A stretch of 64,000 nt of DNA, taken from positions 135,628 to 199,627 of the forward strand of contig JAFXVF010000015.1 of the NCBI GenBank assembly GCA_017524665.1, read 5' to 3'. The position numbers were made by a program, and so were the translations under genes. The stretch is from Clostridia bacterium. GTDB lineage: Bacteria > Bacillota > Clostridia > TANB77 > CAG-508. Below, in pieces: positions 59,711 through 62,904 of the stretch (its first letter is position 1; every line of letters begins with the position of its first letter). The notes under the pieces are model-generated. The model worked only from the letters and a program-made list of their open reading frames with translations, was not told where the DNA came from and did no database searches.

Positions 59711-59859
59711 GATAGTTTAACTCTTTTTAGTCTTCATGTCAAGTATAAAAATATATTTTTATTTGTGTTAATTATGTTGACAAAATTCGACAAAGAATAT
59801 ATAACATAGTCATAAACTGTTTACACTCCGATTTATGACTATAGAAGGAGGAGATCACT

Positions 59860-61755
59860 TTGAGTATCTACAACAGTTTGGACCGCTTTTTCAAGGAACC
59901 GTTTGGTGCAATTCCGAATGGTACTTCCTGTACCTTCCGGATTGTATCTCCACACTCCTGCGACATTCACAACGTGACACTGCTTCTCTGCAAATGGCTT
60001 GATTGGAATAATCCTGTTGCCTTTGCAATGTCTCTCGACAAGTTGACTGATGACGGACGGCAAGTCTTCTCCACTGTCATAGAGTTCAGTGAAATTGGTG
60101 TGTTTGGTTACTGCTTTTCCTACGATTTGCAGGGAACCACATACTATATCAAGCGCTCTTCTGACAGTATGGAAGGCTACACTTCACATGGTGATGGGTA
60201 TCACTGGGAATTGACATGCTACAGCGACACATTCAAGACTCCGTATGCACTTCAAGGTAGCATTTTCTACCAAATCTTTCCTGATCGCTTCTCCCGAGCA
60301 ATTAGCGAAAAGTCGCAACTTGCTGGTACCGTACTTAGGGATGACTGGGGTGGAATGCCTGTCTACCTCCCAACTCAGATGCCAGATGGAACACTCAGGG
60401 TCGAGAACAATGATTTCTTTGGAGGAGATTTGCAAGGTATCATCGAAAAGCTCCCATACTTAAAAGATCTTGGAGTTAAGGTGCTCTACCTTATGCCAAT
60501 CGTAGAAACCAAAGAGAGCCACGGTTACACAACGTCTGACTACATGCATGTCAATCCGTACCTTGGATCCAACGAAGATTTGCGAAGTCTCTGCACTCAG
60601 GCACATGCTATCGGCATGTACATCATGCTTGATGGTGTTTTCAATCATACCGGTAGTAACAGTGTGTACTTTAACAAAGACGGTGCTTACCCCAGTTTGG
60701 GAGCATATCAGTCTCGTGAAAGTCCATACTATGACTGGTATGTATTTATCCATCATCCTGATGAATACCTTAGCTGGTGGGGATTCCCTACTTTGCCAAC
60801 AACGAATAAGGAATCACAGTCTTTCAGGGACTTCATCTTCGGAGACGGTGGTGTAATCGAGTCTTGGTTTAAGCTCGGCATTGATGGCATAAGGCTTGAC
60901 GTTGTCGACGAACTGCCGGATTCTTTTCTCACACCTCTTTGCAAGAAAATCAGAAGCCTTGGTGGTTTCATAATCGGTGAAGTGTGGGAAAACGCAGTAA
61001 CCAAAGTCGCATATGGTGTTCTACGGAGATACCTCCTTGGTGACCAGATTGACGGTGTCATGAACTACACTTTCCATGGGGCCATTATTTCGTACCTGAA
61101 GTATGGTGACGCTACATCTTTCGCATATAGAGTAATGGAGATTGTGGAGTCGTATCCCAAACCGGCACTCAACAGCCAGATGAACTTTGCGTCAACTCAT
61201 GATACGGTAAGAAGTCTCACTGCCTTTCTTGGCACCGATTTGAGCTATGAATCAGATTGGGTTTGTAGGCGAAAGCTCGCTGCGCAGTTTGATAAGCTCA
61301 GCCCAGAAGCATACGAGAAAGCAAAAAAAATGCTCAAGCTGGCATGGCTTTTCTTGAGCTTCGCACCTGGTAATCCTTGTATCTATTATGGTGATGAGGT
61401 TGGTGTCCACGGATACTTTGACCCATTCAACCGCAAATGCTTTCCCTGGGACGACATGGATGAAGAGTTGCTTTCCTTCTTCCAAGAAATTGGTAGGATT
61501 AGGAACAGCTTGTCGTACTGGCTCAGTAAATCACATTTCTCCTTTGCATTTGCCAATAGTAATCTCTGCATAGTGTCACAAGCACTTCGGTTTTCAGAGT
61601 TGCTGGTTGGCTTTAACCGTGGAGAATGTGAAGAAACGTTTGCAATTTCAAACACTCATGAAATTCTGTGGGCAGATAACTGTATGTTCTATGGAAACAT
61701 GATTGTGGTAGGACCATTAGGCGGATTTGTACTCAAAAGTTACATGATGGCATAG
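59860..61755 (+). CDS. glycoside hydrolase family 13 enzyme (neopullulanase/cyclomaltodextrinase/alpha-glucosidase-like)
   Basis: 631 aa. N-terminal E-set-like domain. Motifs IFYQIFPDRF, GIDGIRLDVVDELP (catalytic-Asp region), GEVWEN, NFASTHDT. TTG start with AAGGAGGAG upstream. GC content about 47% versus about 28% in the flanks. Terminator hairpin at 61764-61803. Confidence 0.85.
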   Translation: MSIYNSLDRFFKEPFGAIPNGTSCTFRIVSPHSCDIHNVTLLLCKWLDWNNPVAFAMSLDKLTDDGRQVFSTVIEFSEIGVFGYCFSYDLQGTTYYIKRSSDSMEGYTSHGDGYHWELTCYSDTFKTPYALQGSIFYQIFPDRFSRAISEKSQLAGTVLRDDWGGMPVYLPTQMPDGTLRVENNDFFGGDLQGIIEKLPYLKDLGVKVLYLMPIVETKESHGYTTSDYMHVNPYLGSNEDLRSLCTQAHAIGMYIMLDGVFNHTGSNSVYFNKDGAYPSLGAYQSRESPYYDWYVFIHHPDEYLSWWGFPTLPTTNKESQSFRDFIFGDGGVIESWFKLGIDGIRLDVVDELPDSFLTPLCKKIRSLGGFIIGEVWENAVTKVAYGVLRRYLLGDQIDGVMNYTFHGAIISYLKYGDATSFAYRVMEIVESYPKPALNSQMNFASTHDTVRSLTAFLGTDLSYESDWVCRRKLAAQFDKLSPEAYEKAKKMLKLAWLFLSFAPGNPCIYYGDEVGVHGYFDPFNRKCFPWDDMDEELLSFFQEIGRIRNSLSYWLSKSHFSFAFANSNLCIVSQALRFSELLVGFNRGECEETFAISNTHEILWADNCMFYGNMIVVGPLGGFVLKSYMMA

Positions 61756-61847
61756 CCAAAAGCAGAGCGGTGATAGATTAAAACCTGTCACCGCTCTGCT
61801 TTTGTTTGCCATTAATGTCTAAATAGTAATCCATCTCCTCATACTAT

Positions 61848-62075
61848 TTAGCTATCATAGCTATCAAGTATTGTATTGTACTCTAGTAATTTTTCATTTT
61901 GCTGATCAACTTTGTTGTTATATTTATCAACAGCTGCATTTGATTTTGTAAATATACCATCACTGCCAACTGCCAAAGTAACTGTAACACCAGCTAAAAT
62001 AAGTAGTACAATAACTGTAATTACTAAAGCAACTAAAGTAATACCTCTCTCAGCATACTTTTTGTCTTTTTTCAT
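61848..62075 (-). CDS. small prepilin-like (class III signal) protein
   Basis: 75 aa. MKKDKKYAERGITLVALVITVIVLLILAGV..., a paralogous N-terminus to 13559-14674. AGGAGG RBS upstream. Confidence 0.5.
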   Translation of the reverse strand: MKKDKKYAERGITLVALVITVIVLLILAGVTVTLAVGSDGIFTKSNAAVDKYNNKVDQQNEKLLEYNTILDSYDS

Positions 62076-62247
62076 AAACGTTCCTCCTTTCTTTTTATAT
62101 TTTATCTCATTAATGGGTAATATTATTATATCATATTATGTCAACTTTGTCAAGTTTTTATGTCCTGTATCGTGCTTCATTACAGCATATGGTGAGTTTT
62201 TTTGTTTTAACTAAAATTACTCTAAACTAGCCCAAAATTAATGTGAA

Positions 62248-62276
62248 TTTGATTTTATTTTTAAAAAAATGTATAA
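62248..62276 (+). promoter_or_regulatory. sigma-70-type promoter (-35 TTGATT, 17-nt spacer, TG-extended -10 TATAAT) for the small high-GC ORF
   Basis: ttgatt at 62248-62253 and TGtataat at 62269-62276, about 50 nt upstream of the AAGGAGG RBS. Confidence 0.45.
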
Positions 62277-62327
62277 TATAAGGTATATCACATCATTCAC
62301 CCAACAGAACGCAAGGAGGCATCACAC

Positions 62328-62708
62328 ATGGCCGCTCTCATGGAAAACCCGATGTTCCCGAACTACCTCTCCTTGGGGCTCATCCTTTCGCTGTTCTTCC
62401 TGGTGGTCAGCATCATCACAGGCATTGTCGAATCGGATTGGTTCTCAAAGGTTCTTGATGTAGCAAAAGAGATTGTGCTTGGCATCGCCGAGCTTCTCTT
62501 CTTCCTCATCAAGTGGTTGTTCACAGAACTCCCGAAGTACATTTGGAGGGCCATCACGTGGTTGTGCACTCACTCTTTGTGGTCATACGTCCGCAAGTAT
62601 GCTAGGTTGTTGGTCTCTCGTATCCAGCTTTACCTTATGCGTACTCGGCGTTTTATCACAGGATCTGTGCAAGCCATCATCGAAGATGTCTCCAAGTTCT
62701 TCAGGTGA
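62328..62708 (+). CDS. small membrane protein (126 aa), high-GC foreign-looking ORF
   Basis: RBS AAGGAGG 8 nt upstream. Two or three TM helices (LSLGLILSLFFLVVSIITGIV; IVLGIAELLFFLIKWLF). About 52% GC. Followed by a GC-rich terminator. Confidence 0.5.
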   Translation: MAALMENPMFPNYLSLGLILSLFFLVVSIITGIVESDWFSKVLDVAKEIVLGIAELLFFLIKWLFTELPKYIWRAITWLCTHSLWSYVRKYARLLVSRIQLYLMRTRRFITGSVQAIIEDVSKFFR

Positions 62709-62745
62709 AAAAGGGAGCTCCCGACTGGGGCTCCCCCTTTTTTTC
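62709..62745 (+). terminator. GC-rich intrinsic terminator (GGGAGC-tcccgactgg-GCTCCC + T8)
   Basis: aaaagggagctcccgactggggctcccccttttttt immediately after the stop of the small ORF. Confidence 0.65.
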
Positions 62746-62904
62746 TCTTTATTTATCTTTCTTAACCTTAGGCGTCTTTTATTACTTTAATATGTAAAAA
62801 TATTATTTTTTCATTACATTTTTATTACATTGTTGAGATATTAATTTTGTTGTATTATCATTAAATTATAGTAATAAAATTTATTAAAAGGAGAGTTTTT
62901 AAAT

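Follow-up and report, generated by a model that had tools for sequence, protein, structure and literature searches.

Two GC-rich genes between thrS and hppA of a low-GC Clostridia bacterium and their proposed separate acquisition

The stretch of DNA analysed here, a 64-kb window on a contig of a Clostridia bacterium, raises the question of how two GC-rich genes, a GH13 glycosidase gene and a 126-aa ORF, came to lie in an AT-rich chromosome. The GC content of the whole window is 0.312 (31.2%). The contrast described in an earlier note was confirmed, against a background higher than the "28% GC genome" given there. In 500-nt windows, GC had a mean of 0.312 (SD 0.045, maximum 0.47) and exceeded 0.40 at three places only (42.2–43.0 kb, 59.8–61.8 kb and 62.2–62.8 kb). 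The GH13 gene has a GC of 0.449 with GC1/2/3 of 0.479/0.388/0.479, and the 126-aa ORF, which is the most GC-rich piece of the window, has a GC of 0.491 with GC1/2/3 of 0.433/0.354/0.685. The remaining 57 ORFs of at least 100 aa in the window range from 0.109 to 0.252 in GC3, and the GC3 of GH13 lies 9.3 SD above that of the host ORFs with 150 aa or more (n=49, median 0.182, SD 0.032). The proposed sliding-window GC and GC3 check thus returned both genes as outliers (0.48 and 0.69 versus 0.11–0.25). Judged against this 64-kb window, GH13 and the 126-aa ORF are both compositional aliens in this chromosome. Four abrupt GC transitions were located, at about 59.86, 61.76, 62.29 and 62.75 kb.

Codon usage sets GH13 apart in the same way. 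CTC makes up 31% of its Leu codons versus 1% in host genes and TTA 3% versus 52%; for Ile, ATC reaches 41% versus 5% and ATA 12% versus 52%, and AGA accounts for 17% of Arg codons versus 76%. The excess includes CTC, CTG, CCG, CGG and CGC, which are virtually missing from host genes, and it concerns G-ending and C-ending codons alike, unlike what is seen in the likely highly expressed genes of the host. Seven host genes that are probably highly expressed or have housekeeping roles (tig, hppA, clpX, ileS, tyrS, lysS and thrS) all follow the host pattern, with CTC and CTG together at 0–1% of Leu. The claim that this codon usage differs from that of every other gene was therefore borne out even against tig, hppA and the aaRS genes, and the highly expressed host genes of similar composition that would have argued against a foreign origin were not seen among the seven.

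The GH13 product matches PF00128 over residues 138–528 (E=2.4e-49, 169.3 bits versus a cut-off of 22) and contains regions I–IV as DGVFNH (H263), GIRLDVV (R345, D347), GEVWE (E374) and STHD (H447, D448); it thus combines a score above gathering with the four conserved regions that characterize glycoside hydrolase family 13. Its catalytic motifs are intact: the Asp-Glu-Asp triad, H263, R345 and H447 are invariant in a 14-sequence alignment and align to MalZ. Among solved structures, those of MalZ maltodextrin glucosidase and of neopullulanases come nearest. With enzymes of the MalZ/neopullulanase/cyclomaltodextrinase type (PDB 7vt9, 5bn7, 1ea9, 1j0h) the protein shares the PF00128 domain, regions I–IV, the triad, an N-terminal domain of similar length and the lack of a signal peptide, whereas its alignment with MalZ itself spans residues 133–592 only (E about 3e-59). 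It stays below the NCBIfam equivalog cut-offs for MalZ (NF008051, 267.4 versus 568 bits) and for cyclomaltodextrinase (252 versus 540), and the best-scoring NCBIfam model is that of a GlgX/MalQ fusion, matched in its GH13 half. These comparisons suggest an intact, cytoplasmic MalZ/neopullulanase-like enzyme, which would work like the MalZ group though it is not classed as MalZ and whose most likely role is to trim maltodextrins or fragments of glycogen inside the cell.

The genes and their putative control elements are listed in Table 1. The promoter-like site of GH13, divergent from that of thrS and its T-box, is not listed by the promoter scan because position 6 of its −10 hexamer is C; its hexamers and spacing are identical in the relative L004. 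The inverted repeat in the GH13 5′ UTR, a possible operator or hairpin, is partially conserved in L004, and the predicted fold of this part of the window is unexceptional (z −1.1). Both GC-rich genes had been credited with GC-rich terminators of their own. This holds for the 126-aa ORF, in whose terminator stem one compensatory pair change is found in the relative L005, and is not borne out for GH13, the hairpin behind it being bidirectional and common to the convergent 75-aa gene, with a related hairpin at the same spot in L004. The 75-aa gene is an older resident of the locus, and its product is 99% identical in L005 and 76% in L004. Its description as "prepilin-type" comes down to a resemblance: the protein has no Pfam or NCBIfam pilin match and has Ala at the +5 residue, where the G|F/M-x-x-x-E cleavage motif of N-methylated type IV pilins (PF07963) has Glu, and its 74-aa homologue in the relative L091 falls under the N_methyl cut-off (E=0.003, 17.4 bits versus 21.2). 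No integrase, transposase or recombinase genes were found at 59.4–63.0 kb, flanking direct or inverted repeats were just short, chance-level ones, and the locus holds no tRNA target (the sole tRNA of the window is at 22995), so that the region does not look like a genomic island or mobile element.

Table 1. Genes, putative control elements and synteny breakpoint at the thrS–hppA locus (positions in the window)
Feature	Position	Strand	Remarks
thrS, threonyl-tRNA synthetase (left anchor)	57659..59440	-	Pfam tRNA-synt_2b, HGTP_anticodon, tRNA_SAD; GC3 0.184
thrS T-box leader (host, ancestral)	59505..59699	-	RF00230, 68.7 bits, E=6.7e-15; under gathering score of 93
thrS/T-box promoter-like site	59714..59742	-	TTGACA-17-TAAACT; 10/12 consensus matches; consensus match only
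GH13 promoter-like site, AT-rich	59777..59805	+	TTGACA-17-TATAAC; putative, read from sequence
Perfect 11-bp inverted repeat, GH13 5′ UTR	59806..59842	+	ATAGTCATAAA ... TTTATGACTAT; repeat search
GH13 Shine-Dalgarno	59844..59853	+	GAAGGAGGAG; 6 nt ahead of TTG start
Predicted GH13 alpha-glucan hydrolase	59860..61755	+	631 aa; TTG start; without signal peptide
Bidirectional intrinsic terminator hairpin	61757..61804	both	GH13 (+) and 75-aa gene (-); 23-nt arms, 91% complementary
75-aa gene	61848..62075	-	Pilin-like hydrophobic N-terminus; host composition, GC3 0.17
75-aa gene promoter-like site	62125..62153	-	TTGACA-17-TATAAT with TG extension; 12/12 matches
Interval with synteny breakpoint versus L004	62171..62249	.	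L004 megablast alignment ends at 62171, just before the 126-aa promoter
126-aa ORF promoter-like site	62249..62277	+	TTGATT-17-TATAAT; 10/12 matches; kept in L005
126-aa ORF Shine-Dalgarno	62313..62319	+	AAGGAGG; from sequence; kept in L005
126-aa ORF (orphan)	62328..62708	+	Predicted all-helical; about two hydrophobic segments
126-aa ORF intrinsic terminator	62713..62745	+	Predicted; 9-bp GC-rich stem, then T run
hppA, H+-translocating pyrophosphatase (right anchor)	62905..64000	+	PF03030, E=3e-109; GC3 0.17; runs off the window

In order to follow up the proposed synteny comparison, the locus was examined in relatives. Nucleotide identity to the window is 92% for L005 and 82% for L004, and ThrRS identity is 95% for L004 and 87% for L091. 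The order thrS, GH13, 75-aa gene is found in the window, L005 and L004; in L091 thrS lies directly beside the 74-aa gene, without GH13, and no GH13 lies beside thrS in L092–L094. The window and L005 both have the 126-aa ORF; L004, which continues beyond the breakpoint into ppdK, lacks it. Both genes thus show the patchy presence expected of horizontally acquired genes, with the caveat that the thrS spacer of L091 is itself remodelled and no pristine empty site: the T-box, present in L004 and L092, is lost there, and the spacer has small ORFs of its own. Two acquisitions or a single island split later had been considered. The former fit better, since the 75-aa gene adjoins thrS in L091 without GH13, since L004 has GH13 and the 75-aa gene without the 126-aa ORF, and since synteny breaks at about 62171 and GC3 differs between the genes (0.48 versus 0.69). 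The absence of the 126-aa ORF from L004, its position past the synteny break and a GC3 significantly above that of GH13 agree with its being the younger event.

GH13 has diverged together with its flanks. Between the window and L005 its dS is 0.24, versus 0.18–0.27 for the flanks, suggesting that it entered before the lineages of the window, L005 and L004 split; between the window and L004 every dS reaches about 1 or more. At synonymous sites, GH13 retains a residual S/W correlation of 0.27, versus 0.11–0.28 in host genes and 0.44 in the 75-aa gene (54 codons). The best fit of a three-taxon non-stationary model gives a root GC3 of 0.59 and an equilibrium like that of the host (pi 0.24), and an equilibrium GC3 of 0.45 was not rejected (p=0.33). 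The window and L005 differ in GH13 by 0.111 synonymous S↔W changes per site, which is the host-gene rate; a simple decay model predicts a roughly 1.7-fold higher rate, which GH13 lacks in a comparison with one small control set.

The explanation that we favour, with moderate confidence, is ordinary horizontal acquisition in two separate events flanking the older pilin-like gene. We infer the foreign origin of both genes, the direction and timing of the events and the use of the promoters as follows. In a low-GC, uncultured rumen or gut Clostridia bacterium, both imports would have settled between thrS and hppA. The entry of GH13 into the gap between thrS and the 75-aa gene would postdate the split of L091 and predate that of L004. 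Its transcription would start at an AT-rich sigma-70-like promoter that stands back-to-back with the one of thrS and its T-box, and would stop at the bidirectional terminator of the host. Since its entry GH13 would have co-diverged with its flanks while its GC3 decayed from about 0.6 or higher to 0.43–0.48, toward the host value of 0.18. The 126-aa ORF would have arrived later, after the split of L004 and before that of L005, at the synteny breakpoint, and would have brought or gained its own promoter, Shine-Dalgarno and terminator. On the face of it, the finding is rather ordinary: compositional islands of a routine kind mark imported genes, and the lineage would have acquired an enzyme that trims maltodextrins inside the cell together with an orphan membrane protein, both with native-looking promoters.

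An amelioration model for compositionally atypical acquired genes is reportedly due to Lawrence and Ochman. The locus resembles ameliorating acquired genes in its sharp departure in GC3 and codon usage, its patchy presence in close relatives, its intergenic position next to a conserved gene and its co-divergence with the flanks after entry; it differs from them by its native-looking promoter and terminator and by a compositional step that coincides exactly with the coding sequence. The missing donor, mobility genes, tRNA target and repeats count against two imports, as does the remodelled L091 spacer. An analogous case is that of Lawsonia, a low-GC genome with unusually GC-rich putative alien genes (PMC2671203).

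The horizontal acquisition claimed for both genes was thus upheld as to alien composition and not as to a donor lineage, which the protein search did not return for either gene. The nearest GH13 sequences outside a clade of low-GC hosts are 40–49% identical and taxonomically mixed, a Bacilli sequence being as close as Oscillospirales ones. In a neighbour-joining tree, the window GH13 nests among GH13s of related low-GC genomes that are also GC3-enriched, so that neither a donor lineage nor an incongruent tree marks it as acquired. For the 126-aa protein, the search gave just two clusters among billions of proteins and otherwise nothing, and no homologue able to show a foreign origin, so that its acquisition is argued from composition and presence/absence only.

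The eight closest GH13s are monophyletic and occur at three loci (the recG, pheS and thrS neighbourhoods) of hosts that are related and low in GC, and all eight have an excess of GC3 (+0.07 to +0.30), with synonymous sites saturated among the deeper members (phi 0.02–0.12). Kinship of the hosts is seen in dnaE (76–82% between L006 and L092–L094) and in a lineage-specific 517-aa protein common to L090 and the window. Such GC3-enriched nearest kin in low-GC hosts are not predicted by a simple amelioration model, so that the pattern may call for more than neutral amelioration, and these sequences suggest that one old import with neutral decay cannot explain the whole clade. Together with the unaccelerated S↔W rate and the unrejected stationarity at 0.45, the clade-wide excess counts against import followed by decay.

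The same observations would be accounted for if GH13 were a long-term, essentially vertical resident that moved between the recG, pheS and thrS loci, its GC3 being kept by a gene-specific force, which is possible and in our view rather unlikely. This force could be selection on synonymous sites (for mRNA stability, expression or translation pacing) or GC-biased gene conversion. The monophyly of the eight genes in hosts with related housekeeping genes, the persistence of the excess despite saturation, the host-like S↔W rate and the unrejected stationarity all agree with it, and so does the family at large, which in 60-odd other genomes is slightly GC3-richer than its flanks (+0.048 +/- 0.055). 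GC-biased gene conversion and synonymous GC selection have been proposed for bacteria, with a small genome-wide excess (PMC4450053). Biased conversion would give a lasting gene-specific GC3 excess in a gene that is often recombined or exchanged; the excess here is +0.3 in one gene. Against maintenance, the codons in excess are virtually absent from the host and end in G and C alike, the best-fit equilibrium is host-like, and GH13 is missing from the thrS site of L091. At the pheS locus common to L006 and L087, identity is 86% for PheT and only 60% for GH13, suggesting replacement and not simple vertical descent. High GC3 is not intrinsic to the GH13 protein, given the small family offset and the fully host-like copy of the low-GC genome L046 (GC3 0.179), which shows that the family can be fully AT-adapted. 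Maintenance also leaves the second GC-rich gene next door unexplained. If GC3 were nevertheless maintained 0.2–0.3 above the host across saturated lineages, the clade would provide a clean natural test for selection or biased conversion, in a field where bacterial synonymous GC maintenance is debated and usually addressed only statistically across genomes. For parametric detection of horizontal transfer, the caution is that an atypical gene need not be recent and that its closest kin can sit in equally AT-rich genomes.

Maintenance could also act on both genes jointly, through actively maintained GC-rich codons in GH13 across its lineage and a selected whole-transcript fold in the orphan; we consider this combination unlikely. 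If true, it would offer a natural case in which the synonymous composition of single genes is kept far from mutational equilibrium in an AT-rich bacterium.

The 126-aa ORF has no match in PHROGs, NCBIfam or Pfam, and its AlphaFold2 model is helical (pLDDT 73, pTM 0.30). Its dN/dS is 0.45, and the frame is open in L005 with 0 indels in 381 nt, several being found in the flanking intergenic DNA. We propose that it may be translated into a fast-evolving helical membrane protein. It is improbable, in our judgement, that 62290–62745 is GC-rich because it is (also) a structured RNA, with the 126-codon ORF incidental or secondary. Structured RNAs do form GC islands in AT-rich genomes. The transcript is predicted to fold far more stably than dinucleotide shuffles (z −5.1 for the window, −3.8 for L005); with the 60 natural differences the MFE stays at −154 kcal/mol, versus −133 +/- 6 when these substitutions are scattered at random, 0 of 60 being as stable. 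The differences are near-even over codon positions (17/11/20), the 87% identity is like that of the flanking intergenic DNA, and the lack of any protein homologue points the same way. However, the coding part folded alone gives z −2.65, the window MFE structure is preserved in L005 no better than chance in a comparison of just these two sequences, and Rfam returned only terminator-hairpin look-alikes, far under gathering scores. Strong three-base periodicity (GC1/2/3 0.43/0.35/0.69), a canonical Shine-Dalgarno with ATG, the lack of indels and the hydrophobic residues retained by changes in the variable patch speak for a coding sequence. Folding predicts pairing between the 5′ UTR and the 3′ end of the ORF; the Shine-Dalgarno comes out as paired in all truncations, and so does that of GH13, so its pairing is non-specific.

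The small hydrophobic product and its own strong promoter and terminator recall type I toxin or small membrane-protein mRNAs, and the unusually stable fold and 5′ UTR/3′ end pairing recall type I toxin mRNAs and GC-rich structured RNAs. A type I toxin–antitoxin system was rejected: such toxins are usually under about 60 aa, well below 126 aa, no antisense promoter-like site or RNA was found within or 3′ of the ORF, and no Rfam family matched.

An assembly or binning chimera, with GC-rich pieces of another organism joined to a low-GC contig, was to be excluded according to the earlier note, and the abrupt GC steps and the metagenome-assembled source are compatible with it, but it is vanishingly improbable and effectively refuted: three Logan assemblies from separate runs (L001–L003, one of them of another accession series) match the window at 100% identity over 58.5–64.0 kb, for 5.0–5.5 kb and across all four transitions, the same junctions occur in the diverged L005 and L004, the arrangement of L004 turned up again in a separate assembly from cow rumen (AUXO), and the transitions fall at the start codon and terminators, not at arbitrary points. 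The junctions are thus real.

The third GC peak, at 42.3–43.0 kb, was rejected as foreign DNA. GC3 there is just 0.12 and GC1 0.71, and the peak corresponds to a Pro/Ala/Val/Gln-rich linker whose GC is driven by amino-acid composition.

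Analysis of GC content in 500-nt windows (mean 0.312, SD 0.045, maximum 0.47; 31.2% over the whole 64 kb) revealed values above 0.40 at three places only: 42.2–43.0, 59.8–61.8 and 62.2–62.8 kb. The last two correspond to the GH13 gene, which encodes an alpha-glucan hydrolase of 631 aa, and to a small ORF of 126 aa. The GC3 of both genes (see table) lies outside the 0.109–0.252 range of all 57 other ORFs of at least 100 aa, GH13 being 9.3 SD away from the 49 larger host ORFs. In GH13 this shift sits almost wholly at third codon positions. CTC is used for 31% of leucines against 1% in host genes, TTA for 3% against 52%, ATC for 41% of isoleucines against 5% and AGA for 17% of arginines against 76%, and the difference is qualitative, not just quantitative. 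The host pattern is found in the genes for trigger factor, H+-pyrophosphatase (hppA) and ClpX and in those of four aminoacyl-tRNA synthetases; the unusual composition is therefore not one shared by highly expressed host genes, a possibility raised in the earlier note. Together, sliding GC, per-ORF GC3 and codon tables bear out its claim that two genes of unusual composition are present.

The third peak falls within a Pro/Ala/Val/Gln/Thr-rich low-complexity linker. Since this linker has a GC1 of 0.71 and a GC3 of 0.12 and uses host codons, the peak reflects amino-acid content, and foreign DNA was rejected as its cause. The remaining window is ordinary bacterial chromosome, with genes for IleRS, TyrRS, ClpX, trigger factor, TsaD, LysRS, a RecN-like protein, ThrRS and the H+-PPase.

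Features of the window and of two related contigs; regulatory signals are predictions
Feature	Position (nt)	Strand	Particulars
ileS T-box leader	7426–7658	-	123 bits, above the Rfam gathering score
Run of ORFs almost without Pfam matches	32822–57600	-	about 25 kb, mostly minus-strand ORFs
ORF with low-complexity linker	41256–43346	+	
Third GC peak (linker)	42300–43000		GC 0.44
Protein within the 25-kb run	44001–45611		35% identity to a protein of L090
thrS T-box leader	59505–59699	-	68.7 bits, threshold 93
GH13 promoter-like site	59777–59805		TTGACA-17-TATAAC; AT-rich; kept in L004
Inverted repeat, GH13 5' UTR	59806–59842	+	perfect 11 bp, 15-nt spacer; from promoter to Shine-Dalgarno
GH13 gene	59860–61755	+	GC 0.449, GC3 0.479
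Terminator hairpin	61757–61804		23-bp arms; serves GH13 and the convergent 75-aa gene
75-aa pilin-like gene	61848–62075	-	
End of L004 similarity	about 62171		just before the 126-aa ORF promoter
126-aa ORF transcript unit	62285–62750		
126-aa ORF	62328–62708	+	GC 0.491, GC3 0.685
126-aa ORF signals			TTGATT-17-TATAAT, Shine-Dalgarno AAGGAGG, GC-rich terminator; all kept in L005
Hypervariable patch	62391–62438		ORF nt 64–111, first hydrophobic segment
L090, 256-aa ORF	7352–8122	-	GC 0.486, GC3 0.634
L091, spacer from thrS to 74-aa gene	9460–9865	-	101-aa membrane ORF and 37-aa ORF

The exact GH13 and 126-aa proteins are present on 8 contigs. Over 5.0–5.5 kb that span all four GC transitions, three contigs independently assembled from different runs (L001–L003) match the window at 100% identity. 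The relative L005 (92% nucleotide identity) has the order thrS, GH13, 75-aa gene, 126-aa ORF, hppA, with junctions as in the window. In the more distant L004 (82%), thrS, GH13 and the 75-aa gene are followed by ppdK, and a contig identical to L004 was recovered from an unrelated cow-rumen data set. The chimeric assembly against which the earlier note had cautioned is excluded by these three identical assemblies and by the matching junctions in the two diverged relatives.

Comparison of gene orders in L005, L004 and the still more distant L091, an approach that the earlier note had put forward, showed that GH13 and the 126-aa ORF differ in presence. We therefore lean towards two separate acquisitions that flank an older small gene, GH13 being old and the orphan membrane ORF younger. 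An old MalZ/neopullulanase-like GH13 gene would have been acquired first, between the L091 and L004 splits; the membrane ORF would then have arrived at a rearrangement breakpoint, and both genes would be expressed from native-looking predicted signals.

Between the window and L005, dS was 0.24 for GH13, 0.25 for the 126-aa ORF, 0.27 for hppA and 0.18 for the 75-aa gene. Synonymous sites are near saturation in the comparison with L004 (about 0.7–2.2 for host genes, 1.8 for GH13), where the residual S/W correlation at these sites was 0.27 for GH13 against 0.11–0.28 for host genes, with 0.44 in the 75-aa gene (54 codons). Hence GH13, whose dS and S/W correlation resemble those of its flanks, has co-diverged with them from a time preceding the L004 split. 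In L091 (ThrRS 87% identical), thrS adjoins a 74-aa pilin-like homologue with no GH13 between them, and in three further relatives (L092–L094, ThrRS 80%) thrS has other neighbours. These gene orders date the insertion of GH13 to after the L091 split and before that of L004, with the caveat that remodelling has also affected the spacer in L091. L004 lacks the 126-aa ORF, and its similarity to the window breaks off just upstream of this gene. This indicates a second event, later than the first, at a breakpoint of rearrangement; the GC3 of the ORF, 0.69 against 0.48 for GH13, fits a younger age. The earlier note had offered either two independent acquisitions or one older island split by host DNA. 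The L091 and L004 gene orders support the former, and the latter is disfavoured because the 75-aa gene has been at the locus for longer.

The L091 spacer has lost the T-box and contains two small ORFs instead. The GC3 of the 101-aa ORF is 0.36 against a host range of 0.13–0.19, and the spacer upstream of thrS looks like a recurrent landing site. Ungapped alignment of this ORF with the 126-aa ORF scored 52 against 28 +/- 5 for shuffled sequences (z about 4.7), with an hhalign probability of 1.5%. L090, the contig of a further relative, carries a 256-aa ORF 1.9 kb from its GH13 homologue; the GC3 of this ORF contrasts with 0.11–0.20 in host genes and it had no match in Pfam. This is a further case of a GC-rich gene of orphan character, again in a low-GC relative. 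At the GH13–126-aa locus itself, no integrase, transposase, tRNA target, meaningful flanking repeats or att sites were found.

The earlier note also proposed to trace the donor lineage, which proved unsuccessful. Neither a word-indexed search of 5.8 billion proteins nor a GH13 profile scan of 185,579 species genomes gave a close GC-rich relative of GH13 among the matches listed. Among these, identity outside its own clade was only 40–49%, a Bacilli protein being as close as Oscillospirales ones. Since the host ThrRS is itself only 49% identical to that of Ruminococcus, these identities do not allow an incongruence to be inferred. A metagenome scan for GH13 returned only the contig identical to L004 and one 36% match, hence no new lineage for polarising substitutions.

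The eight closest GH13s are monophyletic, adjoin recG, pheS or thrS, and all belong to low-GC genomes apparently related to the host. Each has an excess GC3 (+0.07 to +0.30), though deeper members are saturated at synonymous sites (phi 0.02–0.12). One old import followed by neutral decay cannot give this clade-wide excess; either GH13 was repeatedly imported or replaced from a GC-richer source not yet sampled, or GC3 is held up. In related low-GC hosts, members of the clade are found in at least three neighbourhoods, among them pheS/pheT in L006 and L087 and recG in L095 and L096. At the pheS site common to L006 and L087, PheT is 86% and GH13 60% identical, a gap that suggests putative replacement of GH13 by a xenologue.

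The main rival to two acquisitions, which we regard as possible though rather unlikely, is that the GC-rich synonymous sites of GH13 are maintained and not decaying. Besides the clade-wide excess, it is favoured by the synonymous S<->W rate found when the window is compared with L005. This rate was 0.111 per site in GH13 and equal in host genes, where a simple decay model predicts one about 1.7-fold higher in GH13; the control set is small (hppA N-terminus and 75-aa gene). When third-position changes between the window and L005 were polarised by parsimony, 27 were S>W and 32 W>S, a count set aside because the outgroup, L004, is nearly saturated; corrected polarisation gave 69% S-ancestral, where decay would predict 80% and stationarity 50%. 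In a rooted two-state non-stationary model of the window, L005 and L004, the best fit speaks against maintenance, with a host-like equilibrium of 0.24 and a root GC3 of 0.59, but this three-taxon likelihood also permits an equilibrium of 0.45 (p=0.33). Import and amelioration are enough for this trio. High GC3 as an intrinsic property of the GH13 family is countered by the small GH13-minus-flank excess in 60-odd other genomes (+0.048 +/- 0.055), one low-GC genome having a fully AT-adapted copy. The persistent GC3 excess over the whole GH13 clade in AT-rich hosts is the single aspect worth following.

The GC-rich DNA of GH13 runs exactly from its TTG start codon to its stop codon. Upstream are a strong Shine-Dalgarno sequence and a promoter-like site arranged divergently to the promoter and T-box leader of thrS. 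These predicted AT-rich sites, together with those of the 126-aa ORF, agree with the host-like expression signals described earlier for both genes. The inverted repeat between promoter and Shine-Dalgarno is partly conserved in L004 and its fold is not exceptional; it may serve a sugar-responsive regulator as operator. A GC-rich terminator of its own had been attributed to each gene. This holds for the 126-aa ORF and not for GH13, whose hairpin is common to the convergent 75-aa gene, has a related counterpart in L004 and is not a terminator carried in by GH13. The window contains two T-box leaders; that of thrS, like the corresponding leaders in L004 and L092, scores below threshold and appears to be a divergent T-box variant of this lineage.

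The GH13 protein matches PF00128 (E=2.4e-49) with all four conserved regions, and Arg345, Asp347, Glu374, His447 and Asp448 are invariant in the GH13 alignment. No signal peptide was detected. The closest solved structures are maltodextrin glucosidases of the E. coli MalZ type, then cyclomaltodextrinase and neopullulanase; NCBIfam equivalogs scored below their cut-offs, the best model being the GH13 half of a GlgX/MalQ fusion. We infer a probable cytoplasmic enzyme that trims maltodextrins or glycogen fragments.

For the 126-aa ORF, the word-indexed search of 5.8 billion proteins retrieved no more than its own protein and that of L005 (80% identical). Exhaustive HMMER searches with both sequences against 1.84 billion representatives found nothing beyond themselves, and Pfam, PHROGs, NCBIfam, phage and plasmid tblastn and IMG/VR gave no match. 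As judged from these searches, the ORF is a true orphan. AlphaFold2 predicted two long helices with low confidence (pTM 0.30, too weak for a fold search).

Evidence that this ORF is coding is mixed. In favour are a strong periodicity (GC1/2/3 0.43/0.35/0.69), a Shine-Dalgarno sequence with an ATG, and 48 differences from L005 with no indels or stops, in a context where the flanking spacers have several indels; substitutions are hydrophobic-for-hydrophobic. A dN/dS of 0.45, the even spread of differences over codon positions (17/11/20), an identity of 87% similar to that of neighbouring intergenic DNA, and a hypervariable patch argue against strong protein constraint. With 22 of its 48 nt differing between the window and L005, this patch greatly exceeds the local dS (0.25) and could result from diversifying selection or be a recombination patch.

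A minority reading, kept for the 126-aa ORF unit alone, is that this unit is a structured RNA. The transcript fold is unusually stable (z -5.1 in the window, -3.8 in L005) and natural differences preserve this stability, while the same substitutions randomly placed lose about 20 kcal/mol. However, the window MFE structure is kept in L005 no better than chance (23% of random substitution sets equal it), the coding part alone has a z of -2.65, covariation can draw on two sequences only, and no Rfam family matched the unit. In the predicted fold, the 5' UTR forms pairs with the 3' end of the coding sequence. Sequestration of the Shine-Dalgarno sequence by this 3' end was rejected as not specific, pairing being predicted in every truncation and in GH13 too.

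Outside this locus, the 25-kb run of mostly minus-strand ORFs matched in Pfam only a Peptidase_S24-like domain, DUF2357 and, weakly, nSTAND3 and DUF6080. It looks like a putative lineage-specific system. The block contains proteins of 1029, 589 and 1190 aa and is kept in L004.
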